DNA of 52,577 nucleotides from Intoshia linei (lineage: Eukaryota; Animalia; Orthonectida). Location of the stretch: contig LWCA01000115.1 in the NCBI GenBank assembly GCA_001642005.1, forward strand, positions 1 through 52,577. The letters are read 5' to 3'. Shown piece after piece: positions 3,701 to 52,577 of the stretch. The position numbers and the translations under genes were made by a program. The notes under the pieces are model-generated. The model made no database searches. It saw only the letters and a list, made by a program, of their open reading frames with translations, and was not told where the DNA came from. Within the stretch, counting starts at the first letter, position 1. Each line of letters opens with the position of its first letter.

Positions 3701-6700
3701 ATGAAAAATCTCAAAGTTTTCATTTTATTTTGTGTTATAACCTTGACTTTTTGTTCAAAGGTCGATAGGGTATATTTGATTTAAAATATTATTTTAATAT
3801 ATTGATAGGGTCATGAAGACAGGGGTCACGATGATCATGAACATCAAGAGGAACACGAAGAGCACGCGCATGAACATGGGGATCATGACCATCATGACCA
3901 CGTAGATCACGATCATAATCACAGTGAAAGTTCACACGGTAAGGATACACATTGTCAGGGTAAGAATGGAAAATACGGAAAACTGTCTATTGGAAAAGGT
4001 ATACATTCTTCAACTTTAACGTTTAGTTAATATTAATTAATTTGAGTGTGAAATTATGTAACTGAAATATGAAATTTCCTTTTAGGATAAATTTGGTTAT
4101 TAAATCAACCCGATTTATCTTTTTTAAATTAAGTTTATTGAATCGTCTAAATATATCAATATTGAAGATTCATAAATGTCAAAATATTCGTTTTAACCGA
4201 TTCACATTTAATGCGTTTTAGGTCCTTATAAAGCGTTATAACTATTGAAAAATTTTTATATACTGTGTTTACTCAAAATTTTTATAATTATAAGATTTGT
4301 TTACAAGATTTTCGTGCTTATTCACATTATCAGTAAACGCTGATCGTTCTTACATTTTGGTATCGTAATTTTTGAATAACTATGATTTATCTAAAAATTA
4401 TAATACCCTAAAATGTTAAAAGCATATTGTAGATAACAATTTGTTATATTAATGAAATTTGGATATTGCAGTAAATTATACAAGTGCACTTTAGTTTCAT
4501 TAGTATACAATTTTAATAGCAATTAACTGCATGTGACTAGTTCATGTGTCTGAAATGAATGTTTCTCAGGCAGGGCATCTGCAGGGGTAAATTCCTCCCT
4601 GGGTAGGAATTTTACAATTTTAAAGGATGATTAGTAATCAATTCGTGCGACGAGAAGTACGAGTTTTTAGATAAAGTACGACTTTTGACACTGTATTGTA
4701 AATTATGTTATATTAAAAATATTAAGTTGGATTTGAGGTAAAAACTAATGATGAATTGACTATAAACTTTATAATAAAGTGAAAAAATATTTTGTAATTT
4801 GGGCCTTGTTAAGTTTAGCCTCGCACTATTTTTCAAAATGATATTATTAACAGTTCGCGACACCTTATGTAAATTGAGAAATCCATATGAAAACGATAAA
4901 AGTTTTAGAAAATTAGTAATTTGACCCTTTTCGATTTTGACGATATATACATTAAAAAAATCAGAAAATTGAATAGTTTAAGAATCACCCTAAAAACCTT
5001 ACACTTTAATGGTTTTGTAAGCATGACGACCACATTTATATATTACTAGGTTGAATTTTATGTACTACGTACAAATAACACCTAGCTCTGTCCAGGGGCG
5101 GATCCAAGAGGCTAGTTAATGGGGTGCAATTTCAATATCAAGAAAAATTTTTTAGGGTGTCTCTTTTAATATCAAGATTTCTAGTTTGATTTTAAAGCGT
5201 CTCTTTTAATTTCATTTAAAGGTTGTTATACAATAGTTTCCAAATTTGTATTTTTTCGCAAAAATAAAAAAAATGAACAGCACAAAATGTAATTAATAAT
5301 TTTGTTCATTAAATAATCCTAAATCAATTAGGTCCAGTATTCTGGGATGAAGTATTGCAAATTCATTAACCAAAGTTTCAATATAAAAATTATAGTCATA
5401 GTGGCAATTTATGAGGGCCAGTCCACATAGACGATTACCAGTCATTGTGGATCTTAAAAAGGTTTTCAATCTACTCAAAATGCTAATGGAGCGTTCACGT
5501 TCACATGTGGTGATTGGCAATGTAGTTAAACTAATTTCGCAGTTTTCGATTAATTGTATGATAGTGGTCTTTGAATCAAGTTCTTTTTTTTTTATCTAGT
5601 ATATTCTGCTTTGAGATCTTCATTTAATGATATGCATGGTAAAAATAATTCACATTTTACTGCGAATTCTTTCTAATCTTTTGCAAAAAATATTTTTGGC
5701 TTAAAATTGTTTCTAAATAAATCTAAGTAAAATTCTAAGTAATCGAATGTGACTAAATCGAGATATTACTATATAAAATTATTAATTATAGATGTGCATG
5801 TAACAAAAGGCCTCAAGTCAAATGATCAATTGTTCATGTAATGACATGTAATTTTATGCGCCATCTTATTGTTTTAATAAATTAAAAACTTTTTCAGTTA
5901 TTTTACAAAACATTAATTAAATTTTTTTTTTAAATTTAAAAGGTGCAACTGCACATTCTGCATCCCTGGAATCCGCCACTGCTGCCGATGGCACATTTTT
6001 ATTCTACCAAAAAAATAAATTCATATTGAAAATTTAACTTAAAAATCCTATTATTTACTATTATCAATCCTTTAAAAGAGTGGTTCCCAAACTTGTTTCA
6101 GGTGGAACTGACATATCACAATACTTTTTACTTTCCATTCGTCCATCCAGTAAATATTCCGTCGTAATTATTTTGTAACATTTGCGTAAAGAATTTTTAA
6201 AACAAGTGGTATCCCATTTTTTTAATTTATTAGACAGAATGTGTGTATATTATACATATATAGTATAATATTAAAAATAAAGTAAAAACCGTCCAATCCT
6301 AAAAATTGTCATAAATAGCATAAATTCCAAAATAAATAAAATTATAAAAAAAGAAAAAATCGAAAATAGCAAAAAAATTACAAACTATTTTCCAATGCAT
6401 AAATATTTATATATTTGTGCTAATATTCGCTTCATTCTTAATTCATGTTGTACAACCAACTCTATTATGAATATTCTAAATAACCGGTCCCTTGACATTC
6501 ATATTGTACAGAAACCACTGTATATTAAAAATTATTTTCACTGGAAATGCGTAGATTTCTAGATTTTAAATTTTGTATTTATTTTGTATATCAACTGGAA
6601 TAAGCTTTATCAGAATAATATTGTTTTTTTTAATTTTCATACATTAATTATTTCACATTTTTTTTAAGTGCTCATTTTGTAAAGATGATCCCACCACTTT

Positions 6701-8211
6701 ACAAAAATTTTGCTAAAACCCTACCATCTCCTGAAGGGTCTCTGTGCAGTAGGTTCGGCACTGTATATAATGATAAAATTAAATATTAAATATTTTTAGT
6801 ATATTTGTACAGCACAATATCTATTACAATAATAAGTTTGCTCTCTCTTTGTGGTGTTTTCCTCATTTTTTTCCGTCGAACTGAATTTTACAATAAAGTA
6901 ATCATATTTATGATAGCTTTAGCTATTGGCACGCTACTATCTGATGCCATATTACATTTGATCCCCGAGGTAAATTTAAAATTGTATACAATAAAATAAA
7001 ACTTAAAATGTAATACAGTCAAAGTGATCGCCTCTAATGGGGAACATTTTTAGTCACATCTACTCAACAGTGATCTATAGAATTTATCATTAATTTACTT
7101 TTCATATTGATTTTTGACTCTCATCATCTCACCTCTTTTGGCCAAACTATTCTAATTTAACATCTTCATAATACAATGCAATGTAAAATTATTTCAACAA
7201 TTAATTTAACCGTTGGGTTCCACATAATTACTCACCGAATACAATTACACTTGTAGTCACTTTTTCAGTGAACTGTATAAGATGTATTCATATACAATAT
7301 TATTACATTCATTAAACGAAAATAGGTTTTTGGCGCTCACCATCACGGCCCTGACAATGAAAAATCAACCTTGGCTATTCACATCAAAGGATTGACAATT
7401 TTGTTGGGTTTATTATTTTATTACAGTATAATTTAATATTGTCTATAGGTGTCATATTTTTGTTTCACATTGAATATTTAATCAAGAAAATATTTCAAAT
7501 GACCAAAGAAAAAACCAAAGTAATACCAAAAAATACTGCAATAATATAAATTTAGACTACTGAACAAAAACAATACAGATGGGGTACATTTATAAATGCA
7601 TATATTTTTATAAACATTTTAGGAATAAAACCGTTAGCATTTGTGGTAACATTCGGCGACGCTGTCCACAATTTTGTGGATGGTATGGCTATTGGAGTGG
7701 CATTTAAAAAAAGTGCTTATTACGGGTTAACCGTATCATTGGCTGTTTTTTTTCATGAATTACCACATGAATTGGGTTTGTTAGTGTCATTTTAATGTAA
7801 AATGTTTGATAGGAGACTTTGCAATTTTGCTTGAAAATATAAAAAGGAAACGAAATTGGTTGTGGGCCATGATTTTTAATCTAATTTCATCTCTTTCTGC
7901 TTTTCTTGGGATGATTGTCAGTATTTCTATATCCAATTCTCCTGATGCTAAGGATATCATTTTGTCATTTACGGCTGGATTATTTTTGTATCTTTCATTG
8001 ACAGATTTAGTAATTTCTTTTTTAAAAGTTGTCATGTTTTATTTATGTTGTTAATTAGATGAACGAAATTGCTGAACAAAGAAAAAAACATAGATCCACG
8101 ATTATACTTGTTATTCAAGATGCTGGATTTTCAATAGGAGTTTTACTCATGTATCTTTTATCTTATTATGAACACGACATTCTTCACATGTTTTCAACAC
8201 GTTGTGATTAG
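3701..8211 (+). CDS. ZIP/SLC39 zinc transporter, LIV-1 subfamily (9 predicted exons)
   Basis: Exon 1 (3701-3769) is a signal peptide, [19 protein letters not shown]. Exon 2 (3809-3998) is His/Asp/Glu-rich. Exon 3 (6800-6969) carries [17 protein letters not shown]. Later exons give [10 protein letters not shown] and the LIV-1 motif [10 protein letters not shown], then [14 protein letters not shown]. Stop TAG at 8209-8211. All joins are in-frame GT-AG. Confidence 0.93.
5046..6665 (-). mobile_element. Non-autonomous Helitron copy, interrupted by a hAT insertion
   Basis: 3' end with hairpin and CTAG|T at 5046-5090 on the minus strand. 5982-6310 and 6580-6665 match the family copies at 37107-38297 and 32662-33346. 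Confidence 0.7.
5093..5981 (-). mobile_element. Internally deleted hAT transposon with transposase C-terminal (hATC dimerisation) remnant
   Basis: TIRs CAGGGGCGGATCC ... GGAATCCGCCACTG. ORF 5293-5520 ([36 protein letters not shown]) is a typical hAT dimerisation domain. Flanks are ctgtc and ctgcc. Confidence 0.88.
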
Positions 8212-20590: not shown

Positions 20591-23500
20591 TCAAAACTTG
20601 CGTCGGCTCTTCAGTTTTGCATTGTTAGGGTAATTTATTTTGGCTTTATTCGTAAATGTTATACACTAAACAAAATTATAAATTAAAATAAAGTAATTAT
20701 AATTAATGTATCACAAAGACGACATTTTCATTGTACAATGTGGAGTAGATAACCTAATAAACATTCATGTAATTAAAAAAAAATTTTAATGGAAAATTTA
20801 CATTTATCCGCTTTAAAAAATTCAATTTTATCAACCACCATTTAAAAAATATAATTCAATATACATATAACAGTAAACCTCTTTAATTTTTAAAAAATAA
20901 TAAAAATTACTTGGGTATCTAGAAAATTCATTAATGATTTTGCAGTAATACATTTGTGTTTATTTTTTATTTCTTTCAGTAAATCTTCAAAAACAATAAT
21001 CTATTTTTAAAAAATTAATTTTTTTTTAGAAGCAATGAAATTACCTCATATTTTAAAATTGATTCGTAAATTTGAGGGTTTTCAAATTTAATAAAGTCAG
21101 ATATCTAAAAAAATATTAATTATTGGCATATTAAGTTAAGTCAGGAAAAATTTCGATAAAATTTCACCTCTAAAATCGAAATAATTTCAGAAAGTTTATC
21201 GAAGCTGAGTGGTGTCCACAATCCGCTGACTACACGTCTGTATTTATAAAAAACTACATTCTGAAATGAACAATTTAAATTATATAGCCACAAAATGCTG
21301 ATATCAAATAAATTAATTAATTAAAATGTTATGAAATAGTAGGAATCAAAACTGATAATTTAGAAAGATAATGAGTCTCTGCTCTAATATTACCGATAAC
21401 TGTCAAAGCTGAAAAGTTTTTCTCTTCTGTTGACCTGTTTCCAACAATATAATGAAACGAGATATATACACTACATCAGTGGTTCCCGATTCAAATAGTA
21501 TACTGACATTTCTCATCAGATTTGGTATAATGGGATTTATCAAAAAAATATTGGAAAAAGAGAATAATCCCCTTAAGCTTTGCTAAAATTGGATTTTTAT
21601 TTTGGGGTTAGAATAAGAGCTTTTTCTTACTAGATTTGATAAAATCGTGTTTTTGAAAAAAATATAGGAAAAATGAGATTTTCTTAATAATTAACAAAAG
21701 TTGATAAAATTTTTTTATATTTCATTTAAATCTCACGGACCCATAAATATAGTTTTTGATCCAAGGGTCCAGTAACCCCAATCGGAAACCACTGCACTAT
21801 GTGTATATTATCGGAATCAAATTAAATTTTAATTATCTAGATCAGGGGTTATCAACCTTTTTTTAGAATAGCCCCCTCCATAATCATAAAAAAGTTGCTA
21901 CTGTTACTCAATTTTTTAAAGAATCGACCCAAAGAATAAAATAATTTTATATATTGTTTATAATTATAATTAACAATATAAAAAACGTTATTTTAAATAT
22001 ACTGTTAAAAATCGATTAACTAATAATTTAATTATTAGAAAATTCTATTAATGTTAAGATTTTGACAAATTTATAATTTAGAAATTATTCTTTTTAGAAA
22101 TTATTTGTTAATTTTTTAGATTATGTATTTTGTGAAATAAAATACAAAAATCGCCCTAAATTATAATATCGCCTACCGTTGAAAACCCCTGGTCTAGATT
22201 AGACAGTCACGATTATTCGAAAAATTGAAAACCGATTTTCGAATAATTTCGTTAATTAGAATTTTTGAATAATCGTAAATATTTTTTAATTTTAAATCAA
22301 AAATTGCCATTATCTTAATAATCACTTTAAAACCCTTCATGTTGGTTAAACTTGTAAAATATTTTTAATTGCTTAATAAGTTAAATTGGCTTGGTATATA
22401 GTATGTTGAAATCTTTCCTAATTGGTATGTCAATTAAGTTTCTACTTTCATCATAATTGGAATGGTTTTCGATTGGATATAATTCAGTAACTAAAATCCA
22501 TAAAATATCTATTCATAATTTTTTATATTTTATTTTAAGTATTTCATATACAAGATTCTCCTAGATCATCAAATTTATTGCATTTAAAGTATTGTTTCAG
22601 TAAGCTCGTCAATAACGGGGACTACACCTCCTAATCAGACGTATGATAATTCAATGCATACATGTTTATAAGACGGAAATTAGAGTCAAAAATTACAATT
22701 TTATCTTTGTTTATTATCTCATCATCTGATTCACTTTCGCAAAATGATCTAAAAAATGATATTAAAAATTGGTAACATTTTACAATAAAACTAAATCAAC
22801 TACTGAAAATTCGATGCATCCATAAAATATGATGAGAAACAGATCCTAATTAAAACCATACCTATATAAAACTTCCTCCTGTGGCAATGATTCCGTAAAA
22901 TTAGTGTTTGATTGTTGAGAAATGAAATCCAGATACGAAATCATTTTATTTCTCGACATTTTTTTAATTCCAAATTCTTTGCATTTCCTAATTAACACTG
23001 AGTCATTCAAACCTTTGTGGTTATATAGAGGCATTCTATTGACCATATCCTGATTTTTAGATTTTCGTTTTTTTAAATTTTTTCTTGGTTTTTTAATAAG
23101 CTCATATTCATTGGGTAAATTTGTTAGAATATCAGAATCACTACTGCAATTCGCGTGGAAATCAAGGCGATCAAAAGAATTTGATCTTTTCAAATTACTA
23201 AATGAAGAGTTTAGTGTAATTGCATCAATTTCTGAATTTTCAAAGTACTTTGAAATATTTTGCAAATTTGTAGGTTGAGAACTGTTATTACAATACATGG
23301 AGTCAACTTCTTCATTTTTTAAATCGATACTATCAAAAGTGGCATTACCGTAATGATCAAAATTGTCCCATACACTAGTATTGCAATCGTTTAAAGATAT
23401 TTCTGTAATGTCGTCATTTTCCAAATTTTCGTGAATTTTTTCATTTACCAGTTTATCTTCGGTAAAAAGTGGATTGCTTAAATTAGAATTATTAGATGCA

Positions 23501-24738
23501 TCCTTAACTCGTGGAAGTTGAGTTAGGATTTCAATTTCGCTATTATCAGAATCACTAATATACATAGTTTTATATTCATCCGCAGACTTATTTTGTAATA
23601 AGGTAAATTGATTACTACGAGGTATCGAAAAAGCATTAGTTTCTTCTTTGTGTTCAGGTAATTTTATTGCGTCGTCCCAAGTAAATGTATCTTGTGACTC
23701 GAAACTAGCACACTGTTTAATAAACGAAACAGTAATGATAGTATCATTCAAATCGAAATAGTCAATCAATAAAGACAATTCATCAGATTCCAAAAGAGAC
23801 AAAGAAACCTCAAAAGTATACAAAAAGTTAACAAACAATGTCAAATGAACTGCATCAAAATGAGTACAATCTAAAACTGATTTACTATAAATATTTCGAT
23901 GAGAATCAACCCCAAAGGCGGCAAAAATAAATTTGTGCAAATAAATAAAAGTATCATCGTCCAATTTGACCTTGAGATCACTGAATTGCTGATTATTAAA
24001 CATTTTAGAAAAACAAAATTTAAATGGTGGTTTCAGTTTAGATTTAATTTGAGGATTGTCAGATTTCAAAGTACAATCCATATTTGCCAAAAGATAAGCA
24101 GTTTGATTACATTGTGTAGGTTTAATTGAAACATCTTGAGAAAAATGATCAATATAATTTTTAAAGTTTTCGCAAACATTTTCTTCTGTAAAACCGGTAA
24201 AATCATTCAAGGTGTCATCTTCATTAAATTTTGAACACGACAATGATTTACAATTTTTAGTCATAATTTTATAAAAATGTCTAGCATTATGGCGACACTT
24301 TACGTTTGCATCTAGTGGCGTATCAATATAACATTTTATTACTTTAGGTAAAATTGATACAGTTGAAGCAGGTGTGATTGGAATATTATCAACATTTTTC
24401 CAACTATCGATAGCTTTCAGTTGCTTATTCAATTCCTTGTATTTTTCTTGGTTATTTAGTGAAATTTCATTTTGATTTCTCGAAAGTTTAATCATTTCAG
24501 GTAAACTCACCATATTTTTTTTGCCACACATTCTCAAATGATTTAATCTCGTGTTCGGTGTAGTAAATTTTTTACCACATATAAAGCAATTTGGTAAGTT
24601 TGGCATTTTTTCTTTAGATTCTTGTACTTTTTTCCCCTTTTTTTTCATTTTTCCACATTGTTTTAAATGTTCTTGTAAGAAAAATGTCTTTATTTTACAT
24701 TTTGGACAATCTTTTGCACTGTAAATTTCCTTTTTCAT
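20591..24738 (-). CDS. SLX4: SLX4/BTBD12 structure-specific endonuclease scaffold (~717 aa, 5 exons)
   Basis: Exon 1 (24738-22862) has two UBZ-type fingers (CPKC..HLKQC; CFICGKKFTTPNTRLNHLRMC), a BTB domain (FSDLKVKL..YLHKFIF) and a SAP-like motif (MPLY..KCKEFGIKKMSRNKMISYL). Exons 22748-22697, 21104-21045, 21000-20911 and 20665-20591 give the SLX1-binding domain IYESILKYE..LMNFLDTQ|CITFT. Confidence 0.88.
21843..22191. mobile_element. hAT/Charlie-like MITE in SLX4 intron
   Basis: TIRs CAGGGGTTATCAAC ... GTTGAAAACCCCTG, flanked by near-identical 8-mers atctagat / gtctagat. Confidence 0.75.
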
Positions 24739-24812: not shown

Positions 24813-25151
24813 TTATTCAGATCGCATTGATATCTCAGGTTTTTTTAATGCGTTGTAAATTGACAATCTTTTGGAATGGATATCTTTTAATTGTTTTTGT
24901 TTTATGTCGTCTTCACTGATAGATGCATAATAATTTATTTTTTCAAAAACTGAATTAGGTATTAGACTAAATACATACAAAATTAAATAGACATTGAATG
25001 TATAAAGTTTGTACCTTATCGCTCCAAATGCTAATAATGCAGTAGATCCTACAATTAACCAAGATAATAGAGACGAAGTTTTTCTAAAATATTTAATGTC
25101 GGGTTCAGTGCCTTTTCTAAATGTTTTTAGATTTCGTATAAAACGAACCAT
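24813..25151 (-). CDS. Small hypothetical single-pass membrane protein (possibly mitochondrial)
   Basis: Basic N-terminus MVRFIRNLKTFRK, one hydrophobic segment LLSWLIVGSTALLAFGAI, and a probable in-frame 48-nt GT-AG intron after GAIR. Confidence 0.55.
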   Translation of the reverse strand: MVRFIRNLKTFRKGTEPDIKYFRKTSSLLSWLIVGSTALLAFGAIRYKLYTFNVYLILYVFSLIPNSVFEKINYYASISEDDIKQKQLKDIHSKRLSIYNALKKPEISMRSE

Positions 25152-25211
25152 TAAACAGGAATTTTATTGTTTAGTTGTCTAGTAAATTATTTAACTTTAG
25201 TTTAATATAAA

Positions 25212-25395
25212 GTTTAAATTGAAGTGGCCAGAAAAATACGTATTATCACTTTTAGTTTATTTAGTTTTAGTTTGGAATAAATTTTAAGCCGAAAATTTTT
25301 ATTCGTCATCATAGATAAGTAGTTTTGTCATTACATTTATCATCAAATAAACTAAAATTGATAGTACGTATTTTTTCTGGTCACTTTATTTAAAT
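25212..25395. repeat. Fold-back inverted repeat / MITE
   Basis: aagtggccagaaaaatacgtattatcacttttagtttattt (25222-25262) pairs with aaataaactaaaattgatagtacgtattttttctggtcactt (25345-25386). Confidence 0.8.
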
Positions 25396-25654
25396 TAAAG
25401 TTAAAATTTAACCTAAATAAATGATGTGTAAATGAAACTTGCAAAGATAATATAATACAGTATATCTGCGCTCATTGGTTTCACCGGTTCACAGAATAAT
25501 TGACTATTGAAATATGAACATAAAAAGGACAGTCAAATTTGCATAATACCAACATTGTGACTTTGAACCAATTATCATATACAGTCAAGTTTCGTTAGTA
25601 GAGGCAAGAAAACTCAGTATATTTCAAAGTGTCAAATCAATTATAACTTATAAT

Positions 25655-26125
25655 TAGGGCAGTTTTTTATGGCAAAATGCCATTTTTTATATGATAATAA
25701 GCACGAAATTACAAGCACTATGATACCAATATTATGTTTATTAATTAGGTAATTAACAATTTATAAAGTCAATAAATGTCATAAACTAAGTTTTTTCATA
25801 AATGCCATAAAGTCAATTATTTTTAAAAAGGTAATTTTTTTCAAGTTTAAATTGAGTTACCATTAAATCACAAAAGAATGTGTATTATTATATTAATCAA
25901 ATTTTTTCCAAATCAATTATATCCTCATACATTAACGAAACTTATATTTAAAAATGCCTAAACCGACACATCTATTTATACTAAAATGAATAACATTCAA
26001 AAACTATGATGATGAATTCAAAATTAATGGAATTATTTTATGTGTATAAAATGTAGTTGCTCTGTCTCTTATGAAAAATTGTACTTTGCAAAGAGTCATA
26101 GAACCACAAAGAAACATAATGTAAT
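25655..26125 (+). mobile_element. Decayed hAT element with CGGBP1-like N-terminal zinc finger
   Basis: TAGGGCAG terminus at ~25655. The interrupted frame from 25954 reads MPKPTH..YDDEFKINGIIL/CIKCSCSVSYEKLYFAKSHRTTKKH (CxxC...H...KH). Confidence 0.5.
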
Positions 26126-26446
26126 GGAAGATGGTTTCATCATTGCCAAAATATTTAAAACTGACTATTAATTTTACTGATGTTATAAGTTGTAGTAATT
26201 ATTAGTAAAGTTTATCAATTATTTTCATATCTGCGCTGTTAAATGGACACCCTGTATTAAACTAGTTACTTTAAAATGTCTTATAATATTGATAATTTTG
26301 TTACTTTGAAAATATTTAAAGATTAAGTTGAGATATTAAGGTAAGGCTCGATATGCATGCCTACCGAGTCGGTAGTACCGACAATACACTTATTAAAAAG
26401 GTAGATTAATAAGTTTTCCCCAATTATAATAGACATTGTATATATT

Positions 26447-29400
26447 TTATTTTTTATAAACATATTTGGCAAAAATATGTGCATATTTACTTCCATTTAC
26501 AGTAGCTTTTAGTTTTTCTAAAAGCATAAATAATCCAGATATTTTTCTATGAAATGTATATGCTTCTTCTGGTGGTGGAATAAGTCTATGTTCCAACATG
26601 ATGGGTATCATGTTAAAAATTGATTCTTTAACTTTAAAATCACCAAAATTATAAGAATTCGATGAGTATATACTGGCTACAGCTTTCACAAGATTTAAAT
26701 GTGTGTCAATCATGATCTAAAAATATTACTGTATATATAAATTATACTTTTAAAAAATTTTAGTGTAACATTTTACATTTAAAACCTTACTTATATGTAA
26801 GTAAATTAATTAATTATAATTATAAAGTAATGTAGTTGAATATGTAGGTTCTTGTATTTGTTTGCATTTAAACATTTATTTAAGAAAGTGAATGGTGTAG
26901 ACTCTACGCTGTAGAGTTTTAACAATAAACAATAAGTTTTAAGTTCTAATACAGTTTTACGAGAGTCAGATTTTATCATAAATTTCATTTTCTGAAATTG
27001 AATTATTCAGCGCCAATAAACTAAAATTATGAGTTTAACATAAATTTCAAGCTCAAAAACTTAAATCTTCACAACCAAAATGCGAAATTACGCAATATTT
27101 TGTAAAATGTATGTATGCATGCATGTAGTAAAACCGTAACGGTACGCCAAACTTAAAAATTTATTTTTATAAAAATAACCTTTGATTCATTTCCATTAAT
27201 AAATTTTAATTTTTTGGATAATTCCATAACCATTTCTTCATTTTTATCTATTGTTGCACCAATCATTTGAGTATAATCAGACAAAAATTCTGGATCATAT
27301 TCGACAACGGCTCCCATATCAATTAAATTAATCTAGAAATGACATAAATTAAACTAAAATAATTTTATAAAATATACAGTATAACAGCGCAAATCCTAAC
27401 TTATATAAAACTCTTAGTTATTGAAATAAATGATAACACACATACAGACAAACAAAGAGTATTAGAATTTTATAAAAGTCACATTTCTATTACAGTTTTT
27501 TCTGGGGGAAAGTAAGATAAATTTCAACCTCTGAAACTCTAATCTTACCGGTCAAAAATTCCAATTGTCCCTTTTTTTGAAAATCAAACAAGTTCGAGAA
27601 TTTAAAAAAATATATACACTTGTATGTACACTGATACGGATTTTAAAATCATAAATATCATCATAACTTAAAAATTAAAAAAAATATATCTTCAGAGCCA
27701 AAACCACAAATTACCTTTTTTTTAAATGAAAAAAGCACTAGAATTTAAAAAAATTACAGGTATTACAGTTGTATCCTGTTAAAACACAAAAAATTTCAAT
27801 CTGATTAAGTGACGCCTTCACGGTTAAAAAAGCACTTTAGTATTCATATATTATTTTTCAGAAATATTTTATTAACTAAAAAAATGTAAAATAATTAACT
27901 GTTCAAAAATTAAAAAAAATATTATTCTGATAGAGCTTATTCCAGTCGATATAAATACAAAATTTCAACCACAGAAATCTACGCATTCCTGGTGAAAAAT
28001 AATTTTTAATATATTATCAACTAATATATTTCGATTAAAATCAAAAATTGAAAATTGAATGTAAATATTGATCCTACAATTTCAAAAAAATGTGGATTGT
28101 ACGTCTACACAATTTCCAAGAAGACATATGGGTGAAAATCTATATAATTCATTCCTTCGGATTTTTTTAATTGCTACGCAATTTTTCATTCTCAAATACT
28201 CATTTTCAAAAAATTTAACGAAATTTATATAAAAACTTAAGTAACTAAAAGTACAACTTTGTTATTATGATTTTTTTATTTATTACAATGCTTTGCAATG
28301 TTGGTAAAATTCAACCGAAATTTTAAAATTGTTTTACTTGTTAAACTTACTGATAGTACTTGTGAATATACAGATTTATTTACAATTTAAATTAAATCTG
28401 ACAGTAGATTAAATTTAAATTTTTAATATTAACGTCAGATAAGTCCGTCCTCGGCAGAAGTAGGGCTGTTTGTACGTAGTACAAAACAGCCAATCTAGTC
28501 ATGTTTATAAAATACAAAAAAAAATATTAAAAATACCACATTTATTAAAAATAAATAAGAAATTGTAATTATCCAACCACTACGGGGATAGATAACATGA
28601 TATGGTTAATAATCACCGATAGACTTTAATCTAAGATACCACATTTTATGGCTTCTGAAAAATGTTCCTACACTTTAGTGGGCCACGGACGAAAAACTTG
28701 AGAAACAGCTCAGTATAATAGGCATTATAAACCCGTTACATTATGTACCCTTCATATGGACCAATTTGTCAACAGAACATGTTTGATCACTGAAAAAATT
28801 AAAATTTTACTTATTTTACAAATATCATTATTGCAAGTCCTAAATTAAGATTCCTCAAGTAATAAGTTGCAGAATTAGGATTCCTACTCCATAAAAATTT
28901 AAATAAATATGATTACCACGTCATTATTTTCATCGTATAAATAATTGGCCCAATTGGGATCACTTTGCATTAAATTATTTGTAAATTCAACTCCATTCAA
29001 TGTCAATATTCGTTCTGCGATCTATTAATTCAAATAAATACTATTTATTATATATCTACAGTAGAATCACAAATATAATTAATTTTTCGTAACGCGCGGT
29101 CATTTTTTAATATATTTTACACCCGTTTTTCAACTACAATAATGACTTCAACAAAAAATTTAAAGTAATGAAATTATTCGTATCTGAAAATACTATGCAT
29201 TTGTATTAAATTATAAAAGTCACAAGTGGGAAGGCTGTCGTACAGTAATTTGCAATAATATTTGAACATTAAAAAAATGGAAAAAGAAAGAATTTCAGAA
29301 AATAAGCCATCAAAAGATTATAAATAAAATTATTAACAATTGTTATTGTAATTTGGTCGAATCTGACTCATTTTCACGATACAGTTAATAAATATAATTT

Positions 29401-31870
29401 GAAATAAAAACGTGTGAATCACTCGAAGCTAAAGTATAAGAAGAATTATACAAATTATAAAACCTCATTTTTTTTACTACTTTCTAATAGTGCAGTTTTA
29501 TCCAAACTATACCCTTCTGCAAATTCAGTAGTAAGAACTTTTCTGGTACAATAATTCTCAATAATATTTGGAACGTTGAATTTTTGATTAATTAAATCTT
29601 TATTTTCATTAACCATTTTTCTAAATTGTTAATTATAAATGTAAATCGTCTACAATAAACGGAAACTGAAAATGGACCTTGGCCACGGAGAAATTACAAA
29701 CTAATTGATAAAGTAGATTTTTTAATCGTATCGGGATGCTGACACGTTAGAACGTTTTACACCGTTAGACTTACGGTTAGTTGCAAAAAATTTTACCTCG
29801 AAAATACGTTCTAAAATGTATAAATGTACCTAAATTTAATGATATTTGATGCTTCCAACTCATAATTAACTTCTTTCACCAATTCCAATTTAGCCACATT
29901 AATAATATTGTCAATAAAAAGTCCTAATTAAAATTTGAATATATTTTTTGAAAAAACAAACCTTTAGGAATGACGTTGAAAAACTTTAAAAAAGTAGCCA
30001 AATTATCCATATCACTATTAATACTTTTATCTACACCAGGATACTAAAATAGTTTATCAAAATCATTGATATTTATCAAACTTGAATTTTAACAGCTACA
30101 TCTAGATTATTAATGGTAGTAGCTCTATGAACTTGGCCTATTGACGCTGCAGCAAACGGTTTGGTATCAAAATTTTTAAATTTCGATATCCAGTCATTTC
30201 CAAGTTGTTTTTGCATAGTTTTCTGTTAAAAATATATTTAATTTAAATCAATTATAATAATTATTTATAACCTTTAATTGTACGAGTGGCATGTAATCTG
30301 CATTATTTCGAACTCTTTCAAATATAGTACTCCAATTAGGGTGTATGACTGAAGAATCTATTAAACGAAAATGTAAGGTATAAAATTTAAATATACCAAT
30401 TAAACTAAACATTTGACCTAATTTCAATGATGCTCCGCGAACTTTACATAGAGTTGAAACAATCCTTTCAATATTTTCATCAGTGAATATATTGTCCATC
30501 TTGTCTATTTTTAATTTGGATTATAAATCAATTATTTCAATGTAGTGTAATGCAAAAATGATTTTTTACAAACCTCGATCAGAATAGATTAAAATATTAG
30601 ATAATGACGAAAGTCCAACCTTGGCAGTCAAACCTATAACATGAGATTAAAATAAATATAACAAGTAAAGTAAAATAGTGTGGTAAATGAATCATCGAAA
30701 TAGAAACTGGTTCTAAACCGGATTCAGGGTAGTTATTTAACTTAAAAAATTTCCTCACGCCACTAATTAGTAAAATGCTCCAAACATTACATTAAAGTGA
30801 CTGATATTTGTTGAATATATCGTATTATTATTGTTTTTTTTCATGTTATTATCATATATTTTTTTATATATTTTACCCATTTTTCGTTAGTTACATTATA
30901 CAGTTACAAGTTCTAATTTATAAAACAAATTTAGCTTTGAAAATGATACATCTAAACTGGACTAATAGAAAATCTACATATTTAAGAAAAACCCGTTTAA
31001 TTTTAAAGAAATATGTTTAATTTTATATTTTATACTTCCAAATTCAAAAAAACGGCCAATCCTTGTTTCAGGAACTGGATTTTCTTTACTTCTTTCACTT
31101 AGCTAAATACTAATTAATTATTTATATTGATATAATTACCATTTGGTTGAATTTTCCTTTTTTTGGTGAATTTGATGCATTACATTTAAACAAAATATTA
31201 TAACTTGATCCAATTTTATAAATGTCACTACACATAAAACATGTAAACGTAGAATTATTTTATAAAATTACAGGGTATTCAAAAAATATAATTACAAATA
31301 TACTCTATCGATAACATTATAATATCTATCTTCTCTCAAACTTAATCCATTAATTATAATAACTAGATTGACTGTTATGTACTTCGTACAAACAGCACCT
31401 AGATCTACCGATGGCGGACTTTTTTGATTGTACAAAAAATAAATTCAATAATAAAATCTTACTTCAATATACTACTATTCACTATTATCAATTCTTTAAA
31501 GGAGTGATTCTCAAACTATTTTCATCACAGAGCGGTCATTTTACGTTATCTATTTTTAAACTGAATTAATCCCACTTTAATTTTATTTTGATAAGAAGAA
31601 TTTGTGTAAAGAATTTTAAAAATAATTCTATTCTTAAATATCATAAGTAAATTTTTTTTTAAATTTAAAATTATTAAGAGAAATTAAAGACCCTTGAAAA
31701 GATGGGTAGATGGCGTAGATGCGTCGTTTGCGAAGATTTTTCATTTTCGGTGACCTCGATATTCGGCTGTGCAAGTAACTCGATTAGTCCGGTTATTAAT
31801 CGAGTTACCTGTATATAATTCAAAAATTAATTAGATTAAAAAATTACCGTTTTAGAATACAAATAAACAT
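26447..31870 (-). CDS. COQ8: Atypical kinase COQ8 (ADCK3/ADCK4, UbiB family), multi-exon
   Basis: Motifs in order: QM|[31 protein letters not shown] (KxGQ), [17 protein letters not shown]|[41 protein letters not shown]. Predicted first exon MFICILKR at 31870-31848. Stop at 26447. Confidence 0.95.
27394..28498 (+). mobile_element. Near full-length non-autonomous Helitron
   Basis: A|TCCTAACTTATAT 5' end. The 3' hairpin ctgtttgtac-gta-gtacaaaacag is followed by ccaatCTAG|T. No TIR or TSD. Confidence 0.82.
31363..31530 (-). mobile_element. Helitron 3' portion
   Basis: Minus-strand hairpin plus CTAG|T, matching the family 3' end. Confidence 0.72.
31772..31811. repeat. 40-bp hairpin resembling fused pogo/Tigger TIRs
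   Basis: caagtaactcgatta - 10 nt - taatcgagttacctg|ta. Confidence 0.7.
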
Positions 31871-32661
31871 GTATTTTAAATATTAAATAAGAGAATTTAG
31901 TCAAATAATTCGAAACAAATAAACTTGTGATTCAATTTGAAATACCTTTTTCAATATTGCAATAAATTTTATAAAATTATTATATGTTAGCGTATACCAG
32001 GGGTTCCCAAAATGGACGATATCGCCCCAAGGGGGTGATTATAAAAACACTGTATATTCAAAAAACGATTTTAGATGGGTAGAGTGGAGTGTTGATGAAT
32101 TTTTTGGTTGTAAGGGGATATTTTTATAGCAAGTTTGGGATCCACTGATATAAAAAGCGACTTTAATAAATAAATTTATTACATATCATAGTGAAGAAAT
32201 GTTATAATACGATTTATCGACTTGCTAGTTACATATATTTGTTGAATTGTAATTCATCGTTCTTTATCAGAAATTTAATTTATTCTATAATTATTTATTT
32301 TTTGTATTCTAGAATTAAATTAACCGGTTATCAACACTACTAAATATTATACAAATTATACTAATATTATATCATTATAACAGTAATTACATGAAACAAT
32401 TTTTATAATTAGTTTGAATTGTAATTACAGTGATTTGTGTCCAATATGAATGCCAAGGGACTTATTTTGTTCAATGTGAATATAACCCACAAAATACATG
32501 AATTTTGAGTCGCAAGACATTCCATTGGGGTAAATTGACATTGCACAGAAACCACTGCACTACATTCACGTAGTATAAATTACTTTAGATTCATTTTCTA
32601 AAATAAGTTTTATTTTTATTGATAATTACAAAACTTTTTTTTTATTATTATTGAGTTCCGC

Positions 32662-33346
32662 TTTTCAATTACAGTTTTTTCCGGGACGTATAATAAGATA
32701 AATTTCAACCTCCCAAACTCACATCTTACGCGTCAAAACCCCAAATTACCATTCTTTTTATAATGAAAACAGCCCTAGAATTTCAAAAAATTTACAGGTA
32801 ATACAGTTGTATCCTGTTAACACAGATAAAAAATTTAAATCCGAATAAGTGACGACTTCACGGTCAAAAAAGCATTTTAGTATTCATATATTTTTTTCTG
32901 AAATATTTTATTAACATGTAAAACAAAAAATGTGAAATAATAAACGATCCTAAAATTAAAAAAAAAAAATTATTCTGATAGAGCTTATTTCAGTTGATTT
33001 TTAGGATTGGTCTGTTTTTACTTTATTTTTAATATTATACATATATTCTGTCTAATAAATTAAAAAAATGGGATAACAATTGTTTTTAAAATTTGTTACG
33101 CAAATGTTGACAAACAAAACATTAAGATAGAATAATTCACTTCAAAGTAAAAAATAATGTGATATGACGGTTCTACCTGAAAAAAGTTTGGGAACACTTC
33201 TTTAAGTGATTTATAATGGTGAATAGTATGATTTTTAAGTTAGATTAGTTAGATTTTCAACGTGAATTTATTTTTTTGGTAAAATAAAAATGTGCCCTCA
33301 GCAGAGCTAGGTGCTGTTTGTACGTAGTACATTACAGTCAACCTAG
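32662..33346 (+). mobile_element. 5'-truncated, internally deleted Helitron copy
   Basis: Collinear with 37200-38297. Ends with hairpin and acCTAG|T. Confidence 0.8.
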
Positions 33347-33608
33347 TTTTAATATAATATTGACAGTAATAATGTTTCTGGAATATTTTTACATTCTGTA
33401 TTACAATTTAAAATGTTTTCTTTGATCAATATATAAAATATTCCCGATAAAATACAGGATGAAGTAATAGATTTAATTTATCATTCCACTGAACGTAATA
33501 TTTTCTATGAAAAACCATTAAGTACCATGTACTTTTTAATGTGATACAGATTTATATATTATACATTCTTAAAACGATATATTAATATGTTTATTTAAAA
33601 ATTTTTTA

Positions 33609-36600
33609 TTACAATGTAGATCTGTTAATTAACGGAGTAACAATCAAGAGTATAAATATCATTATAAATGTTAGTAAAGCAAACACAATCAAAAAAATTC
33701 TGTCTACGATTACAGCTATTAAACCTAAATATAAAATAATTAAACATCTATTGCAGAAATTCCCACACTTTTTTCACGGTAGACCGGTATTCATAATATT
33801 ATATTATAAAAGTTATCGCGGACACTTGAAGCGAAATTAAGAGGAAAAAGTAAAAAAAAGTAGATAAAAAAGGTCTTGAAAAAAACGAATCGACTTCTAA
33901 TTAGTAAAGTTTTTCAGATACCGGTATTGATCCCGGGCCGGCATTTTGGAAACGCTGATCTATAGTAATTTTCCAATAATTTTACTGATATTTGAGCAAT
34001 ATATATGTAATTTTGTTATCCAAACTTAAAACGGGCGTTTAGAGTTAGCCGGTGAATAAAATATAAACTATGATACTCACTTGGTTCATACCATCAATAT
34101 CAGTTGCTGTATGTTGATGAAAATTATATAATAAATAATAATAATAGGAAATAATATCGACTACGTTTACGTTACATATATGATTTCCATACTTTGTGTT
34201 ATATTTTAAAATAAATTTTATTTGAATATATATATAATGTATATTATTCCTAATTAAATCAAATTATTTACTATAAGTAAGATGTAAAAATAATAATATT
34301 ACGCCATTCTGCAAAAATGTCTTCCGATTCAGTCACTTTTTCAGAATATTTTCTTAAAATGCTTTCTTTCAACAATGATTTGTCCTAATAACATGAAAAT
34401 ATAATATTATTACATTATAAATTAAATTTTAGTTATTGAATACCCTTGTCATTTTCCAATCAAAAAACAAAATATATCGTTAAAAAATTCAAAAATGTTT
34501 ATCAGCGTAACATATTAAAAGTAATTTTTGACCGAGATACGTAGATCTCTGTGTTTAAAATTTTTAGCTAGATCAACTGGAATAAGCTATATCAGAATAA
34601 TCCTTTTTTTAAATTTTAGGATTATTAATTATTTCATATTTTTTATTATACATTAATTAATTAGTTATTTAGTGTGATCATAAAAAGTCGTACGATCAGT
34701 TTCAGTTTATTTATTTACTTTTTTAAATCTTGTTTTTTTTAATTTATTTTTATCTGTGGGGATTATGGGGTGAATAGGCAACATTATAATACTCATGAAT
34801 ATGATATAAAAATTGTAAAATAATAAATTACATCACAATCAATGTTTCGTTCATTTGCATTGGAGTATGATGCATGAGCGGCAGATTGTCGAATACGCAT
34901 TTTATCAATTTGCAGAGATTGGTTTCCTTTAATAATTGAGTTTTTTTTGAAAAAATTTTCACAAAATTTACAAGGATCTTTTAAAAAAATTCGACACGAA
35001 ATTTTCCCGAGTATTTTTTTGTTTACATATTTTGGCAGTTTAATCATGTTGGAGGAATTATTGTGCAAATTTAGAATGAAAATTGACAATAATATTGAAC
35101 ATGTAGTAATAATCATGGATAAAGTAAGATATATACCTAAAAAGAAGTATTTAATAATATTAACTATGTAATTATTTACAATAATAACAGTTAATAATTA
35201 ATATGAATTGTAAATCTTATTTTTTAATTTATTCAACAATTTTTCTTCATATATTATTTAAAATTTAATTTAATTAATAATTTTATTCTAATAATTATAT
35301 ATTTACATATGTTACTAAAAACGAAAATATAAATGTATAATATATAATAATACATAATAATAAAAAGTTGGATGAATAAAATTATTTACGAAGTACCTAC
35401 AATAGGTACACTTTCAGAGGTAACAGGAATATTTTCAGCAATGAGAAGCATAAATACAGAATATGCCAATAAAATGGTTATGCCTAGAGATATCTTTTCT
35501 CCTGAATCACATGGTACACAAAAATTGGATATATTTAAAAAATTTAACCATATGCAAGGTAAAATGATGTAAATAATATAATAACTAGTCAGTCTTTCAA
35601 AATATAACACAATTGTTACATCTGAAAAGTAGTTTGTGGATATTGGATACTTTACTTGATTTTTCTCGATTTTTGTATGTTTTATACTCCATTCTCCATT
35701 TTTTGTAAATAGATCCAAATTTACTATATTTGATGAGTTGCGAATGTCCAATTGGTTTGATGGGTGCATCCATGAACCGAATTTAAGTGAACATATTTGG
35801 CTATCAAATGGGAAAAATGCAATGTTGAGTTTACAGGAGGATCGTAGACGAACTATACATCTTTATATAATTTTATATGGCGGGTAATTTTCTAGAGAAA
35901 TTGTTTTTTAAATTGGTTAATTTTATTAACATATAGTAAATTTTTTTACTTTTATACCAGCGGTTTATAAGTGGGAATAATGATATCCCGAGGTCCAGAA
36001 ATAATTTCGATGGGTTAAATCTTCTGAGCCTTATATTGCATGCATACATACTATGATACAATTAAAATTACACTAATATCATATACATTGCGATTGCAAA
36101 TTTTTTTAATTAAACTTAAAATTTAGTATTTGTTGCTACGAGACTTTCATCACATTTAAAACCGCTGGTATACATGTATTGCAATTGTTCTCAATATACT
36201 TCACAGTTTGTACCCCTAAACTGAAAAAAATAATTTCGTACCCAATAATAATTTAAATTTAATATAACTGACATCGTATGAATTAAAAAAATTGTATATT
36301 TGACCGGTTGATGAAACTTTTCTTTAAAATGTTTAAATGATAGATGAAATTAATTAAATCGAAAATATGATATATTAATTTAAATTTATAGTAATATACA
36401 TATATATGTATTATATATAAATATAACCTGGTGGAGCCCAAGAAACAACGCCATCGCTCATAAGTATCACTTGAGAAGATGTGAATTTGTTTGAAAAATC
36501 GTCTGCGCTTGAATAATTTAAAATTAATATAAAAATGACATACAACTAACATACAATGTAATACATTAAATATATTTAAATAAAATAAATTCATTAATAG

Positions 36601-45892: not shown

Positions 45893-47109
45893 ATGAAAAG
45901 TTTTTCAATTACAAAGTTATACAGATTGCAATGTTGGTAGAGTATCAAATATAGTCGATATGATTAATATTCATCCATTTAAAATAAAAAAAACAGAAAA
46001 ACGGGAATGCAAATGCGAACCAATTATAAATTTTTCTGATACTGAAATAAAATATGAGAATGATTTGAATTACATCCCATTTGTTCCCAAAAAAAAATAA
46101 TATATTAAATGGAAAAGAATTGGCCAGCATTTCAGAAAATACTGGGATTTGAATGAAATCAACAATCATTGTAGCAAATGCAATATTTGATAAATTACAA
46201 TTGAAATCAATTTCACGGATAGCTGCACAAATAAAATCCTCTTCAATTGAAACAATCAACTTACAACTTATTTATGCACTTAAACAGGATAGTACAGGAT
46301 ATTTATTATGTTTTGACGGAAAAACTTATAAAAATATACATTACTTGGTAATTGCTGTAAAAGGGGAATAGTTAGTAAAATTATTGCCTTAAAAATAATA
46401 AAAAATGGAAAATCCCAAACAATTTTTAATGTTTTAATGGAGGTTATATGTCAGTTCAATATTTATAAAAACATTAAAGGGTTGATGTGCGATACAACAG
46501 CTGTAGATACAGGATCCAAGAATGGTGTTTTTTGTTGCTTAAAAATAATATTCCCAAATATTATATATTACCCTTGTCGTTTACATGTTCTCGACAGGTT
46601 ATTGTTTCATTACATGGATGAATAACTACCTCATCTTCTCCTAATTCGGAGTATTATTTTATAAACACACTCAGAGATAAATTTGACATTTTACTGTCTA
46701 ACTATACAACATTAGATGTATCTGATTGGAAATATCCTCGCATGAACCGAAACGATTATAGCGAACTTTTATTGTTTATCAAATCATATATGCTATCAAA
46801 TATTATATACTTACAAAAGATCCTAATTTACGTGCAAGCTGTAATTTTATAGCAGATTATTGGGGACCGGCTTGGTTTCAATATAGAAAGGATTTAACTG
46901 GTATAAAAAAGCTTAAACCAAAATGCAATGGTAAAATATTGGATTGCTACGAAAGACATCTTGCTATTGAAACGCAACCTTTACTAAATGTGGAAATGAC
47001 CAACGAGATATGCGAACGAGCATTTTCCAGCTTAGAAAAATTCGCGGATAGGCATCTCAAGGATATTGCTACCAAATTTCTCATTTATGTCAATAAATCT
47101 TTTTCATAA
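45893..47109 (+). pseudogene. Decayed hAT-superfamily (hATm-like) transposase
   Basis: Fragmented frames: LCFDGK (first D), GLMCDTTAVDTGSKNG (second D), YPCRLHVLD (CxxH) and MTNEICERAFS (catalytic E). Multiple stops and frameshifts. Confidence 0.75.
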
Positions 47110-49009: not shown

Positions 49010-50559
49010 TTATTTAGCATTTTCGATGAAATATTGCATTAAATTGAGACTGATACTTTTTTTTGAATAAAAAATAGTACGATTAAAGTGTAGCAGTTGA
49101 CCATAAGAATCTACAACTGAATTTGGTGAACAAAGCAAAATTAAAGGAACTGTAGCAATATGTTTCTTTTTAAATCCAATTTCAGTCAAAAATTTAAAAT
49201 TTTTAATAACATCATCAGTATTTTTCAAAGGAACAACATGTTTATAAGTATACATTCTTTCAATAATATTTTTTTCCTCCTCTGTACACAATTTAAACAA
49301 TTCATTCATGTAATTACGAAATTGATGCACTTTCATAAAATCACGTTCAGTTTCATTTGACGTTACATTCACAATTTTATCAAAATGAGCAAAACTAATC
49401 TTTTGTCTATATGGAATAATTTTTTCCAACGGATCAATTTTATAAAACAATGAAAAATTTTTAAATTTTTCCATTGTAGTAAATTGTTGTAAAATTATTA
49501 AAACTTTTTTAGAATAATCCTGATAAAAATTAGTTTCAAAAACGGATCTATCTTTATCAAAATCGTATTCGGAAATGAATGAGTCATTGGGATCATCGGA
49601 ATATTTTTCAGTGTTTTCATTTTCAAAATTTTTGTTGATGTATTTAATGTAAGCGTCCATAATTTTTGAAAAACAAACTGACGAGTATTTACTAATAATA
49701 CGACTACTGTCTAGTTCAAATCCCAACTTAATGAATGCTTTTAACATTGATATTCTTCCAAAATTGTTATATCTTAAGAAACTTACTACTACGTCAGAAT
49801 ATATTTTTGAACCAATCAATCTTTTTTTATAAAAATTGTCTAACTCATCCATGCATGAAATTATGACAGGGTTGGATAAGTATTTTTCAATTTTTTCTAA
49901 AGGTTGTGTAGCGAAAGCAACGCACACGTAATTTGGTCGTTTGGATTTTACGTACTCTAACCTTTTTTTCAGTTCAATTTCGTTTATCAAGAGTAACCTT
50001 TTCCATGTAGAAAGTTCATATTCAGTTAATGGTGCATATTGACGTAGTAAAATTACTACGCGGTAAAAATTTAGAAATGTTTTATAAAATGTTCCATAAT
50101 TGAAATTTTTTCTTGAAACGAATGATTCAAAAATTGAAAAATTCTTTTTTCGAAATAAAATGTAGGCTGATTTTATTTCAGTGTCAATGAAAAGTTCATT
50201 ATTCATTTGTAGTGGAGCCGAATTAAAACATCGTGGTACTATTTTTTTTACATTTTGACCCACTACTTTTTCTCTTAGGAGAAAAGATATTTGATTTATT
50301 GACATGTTTGCATTGTACATTTTATCGTAATTTTTTCGTGACAGTGATAAAATTCTTATTAATCCATTTATTAAATTTCCATCCAATGAAAATGTATTTC
50401 TAAATATTTAATTATTTGTATTTTCTTCTTATTTTTCAAAATTGTACAATTTGAGTAATAATCAATATGCTCGATCAACGCGGTTAATATTTTAGATTCA
50501 TTGATAACTGACACTATAGAATAACTCATTCGATTAATACGATATTTTGAAAAATTCAT
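49010..50559 (-). CDS. Putative mTERF-family mitochondrial nucleic-acid-binding protein
   Basis: Open 458-codon frame at 49010-50386. mTERF-like repeats such as NFKFLTEIGFKKKHIATVPLILLCSP and ELKKRLEYVK, and the C-terminus LNLMQYFIE recalls invertebrate mTERF5/DmTTF ends. The frame starts at TTG, so an upstream exon (MNFSKYRINRMSYSI from 50559) is inferred. Confidence 0.5.
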
Positions 50560-51451: not shown

Positions 51452-51900
51452 ATGGGAGCAGTGTGGAGTTATGTATTGAGTTTTTTGGGTAAAAAAGAAC
51501 GAAGAATTTTAATTTTAGGATTGGATAACGCTGGGAAAACCACAATTTTGTATCGATTACAAGTTGGTGAAGTCGTTACAACTATCCCAAGTAATTAATT
51601 ATTAATTCCAAGTTATTTTATATAAAAAATAAAATATTCAACTCAATTAATTATACTTTTAACTAGCAATCGGGTTTAATGTTGAATCTGTAAAGTACAA
51701 CAAACTGACGTTTCAATTATGGGATTTGGGTGGTCAAAGTAGTATAAGGTAAAACATTCATGTCGGATTATAATTTTGTTTAATATAGACCATATTGGCG
51801 CTGTTATTATGCCAATACTGATGTTATTATTTATGTTGTTGATAGTATGGATAGGGATAGAATGGTATTGTCTTCTAAAGAACTACAATTAATGTTGAAG
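51452..51900 (+). CDS. ARL1: ADP-ribosylation factor-like protein 1, exons 1-3 (gene continues past window)
   Basis: Exons 51452-51590, 51667-51748 and 51789-51900 give [35 protein letters not shown]|[16 protein letters not shown]|[20 protein letters not shown]. Confidence 0.95.
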
Positions 51901-51944
51901 GTTACTATTTTTATTTGGTAGATATAAATTTTATGTTATATGAA

Positions 51945-52360
51945 GTTAGCCCTATCCTTTAACACATGATTCACGATAAATGACATATATCTGATCTCTT
52001 AGAGTCTAAGAGACTTAGACCTTCTATTCTCCAAACTCTTCCTCACATCTTTCTTTATCAAGTTTAATGTGCGGTGCGTTGATCAGATTTAATCCAGAAG
52101 GGTTGTCATCAATTTGAGTAGATCAGAACGTATGTATTGTTTTGTTCTACACGAACCTGCAGTGAGGCTTAATGTTTTACAAAATTTGCTTTCTGTACTT
52201 TCATATACAGATTTCTAGAATGTTTCAAACTTTAACAAATAGGATCAGGAAACTGTTGAACTAGAAATCTACATAATGCGGTACCGCCTGGTCCAGGATC
52301 AAAAACGAGGAAGAAGTTCATCATTTGCAATACAATATCTTCTGATAGGAGTATATCTAT
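51945..52360 (-). pseudogene. Endogenous viral element: rhabdovirus-like (Mononegavirales) L polymerase fragment
   Basis: Decayed translation FLVFDPGPGGTALCRFLVQQFPDPIC*SLKHSRNLY / STESKFCKTLSLTAGSCRTKQYIRSDLLKL / DNPSGLNLI / LNLIKKDVRKSLE. It is collinear with recalled rhabdovirus L motifs LYLDPSxGG..LxRFxIRxFPDPVTESL..KLVEDPTSLNI..NLLKxEVKKxL. Confidence 0.8.
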
Positions 52361-52362
52361 TA

Positions 52363-52577
52363 CAGTGTTTCCCAACCTTTTAAGTGTCATGCCCCACTTT
52401 TATCCTTACGAAATTTCTACGCCCCACCATAATTTGTAACAAATATTTCCATAGTAGTGTCCTAACAGATTTTTTTATGCACATATGATTTGTTTCATAC
52501 AAAATGAATTAATGTGATTTTTCAGTTTGGTGTTTTTTGCAAAGATTTTCTATTTGAAGCACCATTTTTGTAATCTT
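52363..52577 (+). mobile_element. hAT/Charlie-like MITE left end
   Basis: CAGTGTTTCCCAACCTTT terminus followed by gcccc subterminal motifs. The right end lies outside the window. Confidence 0.6.

Follow-up and report, generated by a model that had tools for sequence, protein, structure and literature searches.

Close to the downstream end of the window (the whole stretch of 52,577 nt of Intoshia linei DNA analyzed here), we found a decayed fragment derived from the L gene of a rhabdovirus. It lies on the minus strand at 52330-51948, spans about 400 bases, corresponds to L residues ~880-1010, and thus represents ~6% of a full L. We put at roughly 0.85 the probability that this is a broken piece of an animal-rhabdovirus L gene, positioned antisense in intron 3 of the ARL1 gene and likely to be a germline, functionless, and spliced-out fossil. 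A neutral non-retroviral endogenous viral element (EVE) is the best reading of the data.

An earlier reading of this stretch, made from the sequence only, had proposed a rhabdovirus-like L identity for the segment from a series of L motifs, and this proposal was borne out. When aligned in a frameshift-aware manner to a profile built from 80 L regions, the segment scored 86.7 bits over 52327-52014. All controls stayed far below this value: 300 dinucleotide shuffles gave 14.2 +/- 1.8 bits with a maximum of 21.8, the maximum among 190 other segments of the window was likewise 21.8 bits, and the opposite strand of the fragment reached 12.4 bits. Chance resemblance is excluded by these shuffle and segment controls. 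A scan of the six frames of the window with the same 80-L profile matched at the fragment only (52300-52181, E 8.9e-9; 52223-52014, E 1.2e-5), with the next best match at E 4.6. The profile was made from those 80 of 92 viral loci that cover the region, the loci having been gathered by searching at the DNA level for the FPDP motif. Since the L references had in this way been picked by a motif common to the fragment, circularity was checked with a second profile that lacks it. This profile, comprising 152 columns downstream of the FPDP motif, matched 52214-52014 with an E value of 1e-4.

The first 55 codons of the fragment, in which X stood for each stop codon, found just two matches at E <= 10 among the 177,635 sequences of the PDB, namely VSV L (residues 878-914, E 0.024) and, in second place, rabies L (residues 885-930, E 0.26); its second frame gave no match to the PDB sequences. 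A comparison of three frames with Pfam returned no L family, and a match to M11L, which lay under the cut-off, was taken as noise. A word-index search of proteins, queried with the same 55 codons, covered entries of up to 2000 aa, a length below that of most L proteins, and yielded one candidate and no match. Eleven matches, mostly to long or repetitive cellular proteins, were returned by HMMER from 1.84 billion representatives, and none of them fit the L profiles; the ESM Atlas gave hypothetical proteins (top value 0.81) and was uninformative. For a fragment of this length, these large libraries were of no help. Other viral genes were not detected in the window when 929 ORFs from 354 viral loci were compared with it, all 114 matches at E <= 0.01 falling on the L fragment.

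In profile and pairwise alignments alike, the motifs DP..GG, RF..R.FPDP, [ED]P..LN, and NLLK follow one another collinearly downstream of the catalytic site, and the L proteins of the Alpharhabdovirinae possess the same motifs in the same order and with the same spacing after GDN. The ordered series of L motifs that the sequence-only reading had recognized is therefore present, although DP..GG is three codons short owing to a 9-nt in-frame deletion within the motif. A further departure is a Q in place of the R that precedes FPDP. The positions given earlier for the individual motifs were recovered as well, with DPGPGG from 52300, FPDP from 52252, a stop codon at 52234-52232, DNPSGLNL at 52107-52084, and LNLIKKDVRKSLE from 52067.

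The core of the element (52014-52327, minus strand) comprises ~105 codons that lie just downstream of the polymerase catalytic motif, and is covered by the PDB, profile, frameshift-aware, and pairwise alignments; the GDN motif itself and the capping and methyltransferase domains of L lie beyond its reach. Two stop codons interrupt it, at 52234-52232 and 52217-52215, and the frameshift-aware and pairwise alignments place three frameshifts near 52221-52225, 52105-52108, and 52074-52075. The first of these stops had been noted before, but its count as the only one overlooked the second; likewise, all three frameshifts proposed earlier were recovered by the frameshift-aware alignment, but the first sits earlier in the reading direction than had been implied, at ~52225. 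These lesions indicate that the L fragment was released from selection as a protein.

Upstream of the core, minus-strand positions 52328-52362 probably continue the element up to the border of a hAT-type MITE. This stretch corresponds to a variable part of L and is open in the same frame, with a GC content of 0.28-0.35; for the 11 codons adjoining the MITE (52360-52328), the per-column profile scores are close to zero, and among the 60 best pairwise alignments one starts at 52360 and two start at 52357. On the other side, several pairwise alignments run past 52014, open a gap of 12 codons, and restart at 51977-51948. Positions 51978-52013 are thus a probable 36-nt in-frame insertion, and L similarity probably resumes behind it at 51977-51948, a probable 3' tail of the viral piece (minus strand) whose 10 codons keep the same frame and fit the next profile columns. 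Against these columns, 17-26 of 2000 shuffles score as well as the tail. The insertion includes a stop codon in the L frame (52001-51999) and is composed of short inverted repeats, among them a perfect 9-bp inverted repeat at 51995-52013; a repeat like it was carried by 20 of 2000 shuffles, in a test that was chosen after the repeat had been seen. Short inverted repeats are the type of scar that hairpin-type transposon excision or end-joining repair leaves behind, and the palindrome-rich insertion is possibly a hAT excision footprint or an end-joining scar.

Base composition also sets the element apart from its surroundings, in agreement with the GC-rich segment that had been described earlier. 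The GC content amounts to 0.35 over 51945-52362 vs. 0.13 in ARL1 intron 1, 0.23 in intron 2, and 0.14 at the 5' end of intron 3, and it drops to intron level below ~51945. Values of 0.35 or more are attained by just 6 of 1044 overlapping 418-nt segments of the contig, those of the element itself counted in. For comparison, the median GC content of the same L region in 80 rhabdovirus L genes is 0.39.

The ARL1 gene is encoded on the plus strand. Its first coding exon (51452-51590) begins with an ATG at 51452 and matches members of the ARF/ARL1 family in the PDB; after an intron of 76 nt follows exon 2 (51667-51748), and after a further intron of 40 nt exon 3 (51789-51900), for which ARL1 proteins account for the six best of 7 PDB matches (E 4e-13). 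Spliced contigs from three public runs (X2, X3, and X4) document the joint from 51590 to 51667 as well as the GT..AG joints of exon 2 and those of exon 3, and attest to the expression of ARL1 in these runs. In all three, contigs join exon 3 to a next exon lying outside the window, which indicates that intron 3 (51901-52577), where these contigs exit the window and which runs off the contig end, is at least 677 nt long and is removed normally. Intron 3 holds both the viral piece and the MITE. The spliced contigs fix the introns and exon 3 is that of ARL1, and the antisense position in ARL1 intron 3 that the sequence-only reading had assigned to the element stands. The spliced contigs do not cover the L element and say nothing on its transcription.

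The junction between exon 3 and the element is contained in an unspliced contig of 902 nt from X1, which aligns to 51491-52392 without gaps and with 3 differences from the window. It extends over more than 400 nt to either side of the junction and retains introns 1 and 2. Reads joining exon 3 to the element had been named earlier as a check on the assembly, and the X1 contig provides such a bridge, perhaps not independently of the window: X1, whose type we guess to be DNA, is possibly the source of the window. The contig reaches 30 letters into the MITE, which is one short of a formal bridge to it. The differences from the window fall at 51725, 52226, and 52234, the last of them within the first stop codon of the core; the lesion pattern may vary between chromosomes, or one of the two readings may be wrong.

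These data bear on the notion that the segment arose as a chimera, in the assembly or in a library, by the joining of RNA-virus cDNA, or of foreign DNA, to ARL1. The segment does lie near a contig end and beside a high-copy repeat, and one sample only (S1, possibly the source of the window) contains it. We nevertheless consider a chimera very improbable, given that an independently assembled contig crosses the junction for hundreds of bases in both directions with introns 1 and 2 unspliced, that a replicating virus would not be expected to carry two stops and three frameshifts, and that X1 and the window differ within the piece at two single bases, which resemble allelic variation or sequencing error. 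Viral-derived sequence is joined here to host genomic DNA and its reading frame is disabled, and these are two of the features by which an EVE is recognized.

To place the source virus, we extended the references by 263 loci, chosen through a polymerase motif that lies outside the region of the fragment, and compared 224 distinct L cores. In frameshift-aware comparisons with the fragment, the clade containing VSV and rabies virus (~101 sequences, counted from the tree) had group medians of 70-148 and a best score of 160, whereas the L cores outside this clade (~123) all scored 57 or less. We named the clade Alpharhabdovirinae from its named members, and Merhavirus is included in it; most outgroup L sequences were recognized by motif and genome length. 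A phylogeny of L sequences, which the sequence-only reading had recommended, was run with 68 references (P0060 was left out), 89 usable columns, and the fragment bridged with X. It places the fragment inside the Alpharhabdovirinae, nested among named members, in a reference set whose outgroups are mostly without names. In the tree search, the fragment joined the merhaviruses with an SH-aLRT of 91, its own branch being long (1.11). When the fragment was placed on the 133 branches of a fixed backbone, all 34 branches outside the clade were rejected (delta lnL >= 42, pAU <= 0.002; AU test with 2000 replicates), and the stem of the VSV/rabies clade gave a delta lnL of 12.7 and a pAU of 0.03. The fixed-backbone weight fell mainly on ephemerovirus (~0.61) and merhavirus (~0.27) positions, which lie within 0.4 log units, and many other branches survive. 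These placements support a source virus inside an Alpharhabdovirinae-like clade; the support extends to the subfamily and not to the genus, because the fragment is short (89 columns) and its branch is long.

The best amino-acid identity within the tree set was 53% over 89 columns, and a closer lineage outside the clade has perhaps not been sampled. That the fragment came from another family of negative-strand viruses, or is a chance likeness of host DNA, nevertheless appears hardly credible, since the controls exclude chance, none of the outside L cores comes near the scores within the clade, and every outside placement was rejected. The source had been suspected earlier to be a probably undescribed virus, and in keeping with this suspicion no close relative was present in the sets searched: a search for closer relatives took in one metagenome locus, which scored 83, and another 113 viral loci, none of which exceeded 160. 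Among the references, we identified no rhabdoviruses of flatworms, annelids, or molluscs and none of the gamma type from fish.

Among individual L proteins, that of Culex tritaeniorhynchus rhabdovirus (Merhavirus) is identical to the fragment in 45 of 82 aligned residues, that of Koolpinyah virus (an ephemerovirus) in 50 of 115, and that of porcine ephemerovirus 1 in 49 of 126; other close L proteins are those of Kotonkan virus (an ephemerovirus) and Ngaingan virus (Hapavirus). In contrast to these alpharhabdoviruses, the fragment retains a small part (~6%) of L, is broken, and resides in host DNA, and it is equally far from several genera. The close alpharhabdoviruses come from mosquitoes, other biting flies, and mammals, and not from a marine spiralian. 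The reference work also brought up several unnamed environmental alpharhabdovirus-like L sequences (L038, L012, L045, L063, and L355), of which L038 is located at the base of the clade. In the record of Culex tritaeniorhynchus rhabdovirus at L017:4682-8680, the L frame ends at 1333 aa vs. 2123 aa in other records, which we take to be consistent with the known intron in the L gene of this virus.

Rhabdoviruses are without a DNA stage, so that a host reverse transcriptase would have copied the viral RNA. Judging from the non-retroviral EVEs of other animals, this enzyme was likely supplied by a host retrotransposon, and the internal L piece would then have been captured in a germline cell, most simply at a DNA break. 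We favor such a capture, or a template switch, over insertion of a processed mRNA because the piece is internal to L and possesses no poly(A); the visible ends of the element carry neither a piece of a retroelement nor a target duplication nor poly(A). The insertion would have been tolerated on account of its intronic location and would subsequently have decayed without selection for a protein. The hAT MITE presumably landed later, at or near the upstream end of the L piece, and either repair or transposon excision probably produced the 36-nt palindromic insertion. The development of orthonectids takes place inside other invertebrates, which is a nemertean in the case of I. linei, so that the virus was perhaps the parasite's own or that of its host; it may have replicated in the orthonectid or in the surrounding host tissue, and the sequence fits both.

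Rather than being a mere fossil, the element might be a working source of antiviral small RNA, with the spliced-out intron being cut into piRNA-like guides. In the ARL1 pre-mRNA, the element is present in virus-genome sense and is hence the complement of L mRNA; expression of ARL1 was seen in three runs. Passages in the literature describe piRNA-like primary RNAs from putative endogenous virus copies of dog whelk, starfish, and sponge (PMC6085071), and the retention of the piRNA pathway in almost all Lophotrochozoa (PMC11114477). We regard such a role as improbable all the same: an antisense orientation has a one-in-two chance of arising anyway, the element consists of one piece of ~400 nt, carries several lesions, and lies in the intron of a housekeeping gene and outside a known piRNA cluster, and the endo-siRNA machinery is reported to have been lost in Trochozoa (PMC11114477, from whose main text Intoshia is absent).

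The functionless viral fossil that we favor is best read as a known kind of EVE in a host phylum for which no earlier rhabdovirus report was found. Rhabdovirus-derived EVEs are widespread in arthropods. A passage of PMC11097642, a study that sampled Orthonectida, makes a general statement on rhabdovirus EVEs, and a putative EVE derived from a rhabdovirus nucleoprotein is described for the dog whelk Nucella lapillus in part of the text of PMC6085071. The arthropod elements and that of N. lapillus resemble the fragment in being pieces of a negative-strand virus gene in invertebrate DNA next to a transposon; they differ from it in that the present host is an orthonectid, the viral sequence comes from L and lies in an intron of a housekeeping gene, the junction is known, and a small-RNA role is putative. 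In the passages of PMC13524379 and PMC7943196 that mention them, Orthonectida are merely listed among the sampled genomes. No report of a rhabdovirus, or of this element, in orthonectids was found in our search, which covered mostly papers outside the subscription literature and part of their supplements.

A near-complete RdRP of a viral family, named in figure colour only in the relevant part of PMC6396948, has been listed for the predicted proteome of I. linei. It shares with the fragment the host species and the nature of a virus-derived polymerase sequence, but the two cannot be the same element, because the screen, as its text describes it, kept near-complete RdRP domains in predicted proteins. 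This RdRP could be a mononegaviral L or belong to another family, and its existence weakens any claim that the fragment is the first viral trace in I. linei. Intact rhabdoviruses of parasitic flatworms (described in part of PMC9241645) are, as here, tied to spiralian endoparasites, but they are exogenous and not found in host genomes.

In our estimate, the odds are about even that the fragment constitutes the first rhabdovirus record in Orthonectida and documents an undescribed lineage of the VSV/ephemerovirus crown that replicated in germinal cells of a marine invertebrate endoparasite. If this were true, a clade mainly known from arthropods and vertebrates would extend to spiralian parasites, a living relative would be predicted to occur in Intoshia or in its host worm, and further L, N, or G pieces would be predicted in the genome, possibly including the RdRP of the I. 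linei proteome. Should the placement hold with wider sampling, alpharhabdoviruses would have reached marine spiralian parasites, and the fragment would bear on the proposal, put forward in a passage of PMC9241645, that rhabdoviruses are shuttled between hosts by parasites. Very little is known of orthonectid viruses. A fossil in the germline anchors a virus in its host lineage more securely than does a transcriptome contig from an infected animal. The fragment also shows that the genome of a parasite, though small and compact with introns of 40-76 nt, still acquires and retains foreign cDNA. The mechanism itself is ordinary, and rhabdovirus EVEs are well-known.

The MITE that borders the fragment (52363-52577, plus strand) is represented by its left end only, since the contig ends within it. 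It begins with CAGTGTTTCCC after an 8-bp site that carries TA at positions 4-5, and many copies with other flanks are present in X1, X3, and X4. The terminal repeat starting with CAG, the 8-bp target with central TA, and the many dispersed copies identify it as a hAT-type MITE; it is Buster-like by family features, a label that we presume. The MITE plausibly cut off further L sequence, and we say no more than plausibly because positions 52360-52328 are without profile support and the contig ends inside the MITE. A complete hAT-type MITE of 318 nt is located elsewhere in the window at 21477-21794; its ends read CAGTGG, and its 8-bp target duplication is near-perfect and has TA in the center. 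Ends of related MITEs were seen at 13864, 14309, and 43823. The broken frames at 45948-47106 and 5296-5595 look by eye like decayed DNA transposases.

Several further genes of the window deserve mention. The public I. linei protein P0102 (829 aa), which maps across 24816-35769 (minus strand), combines part of a nicotinic acetylcholine receptor with a kinase of the ABC1/COQ8 type and, possibly, with a third gene; it appears to reflect gene models that were run together, not a genuine fusion. A nicotinic-receptor exon of the window agrees with this protein at all of 125 residues (100% identity), the next matches (<=56%) being mostly to molluscs and other spiralians. Two long single-exon ORFs on the minus strand, at 22849-24738 (630 codons) and 49013-50407 (465 codons), are absent as exact sequences from the cluster collection; judged by eye, we take the former to be SLX4-like and the latter mTERF-like. 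On the plus strand, 3809-8051 contains exons that by eye appear to encode a His-rich ZIP-type zinc transporter.
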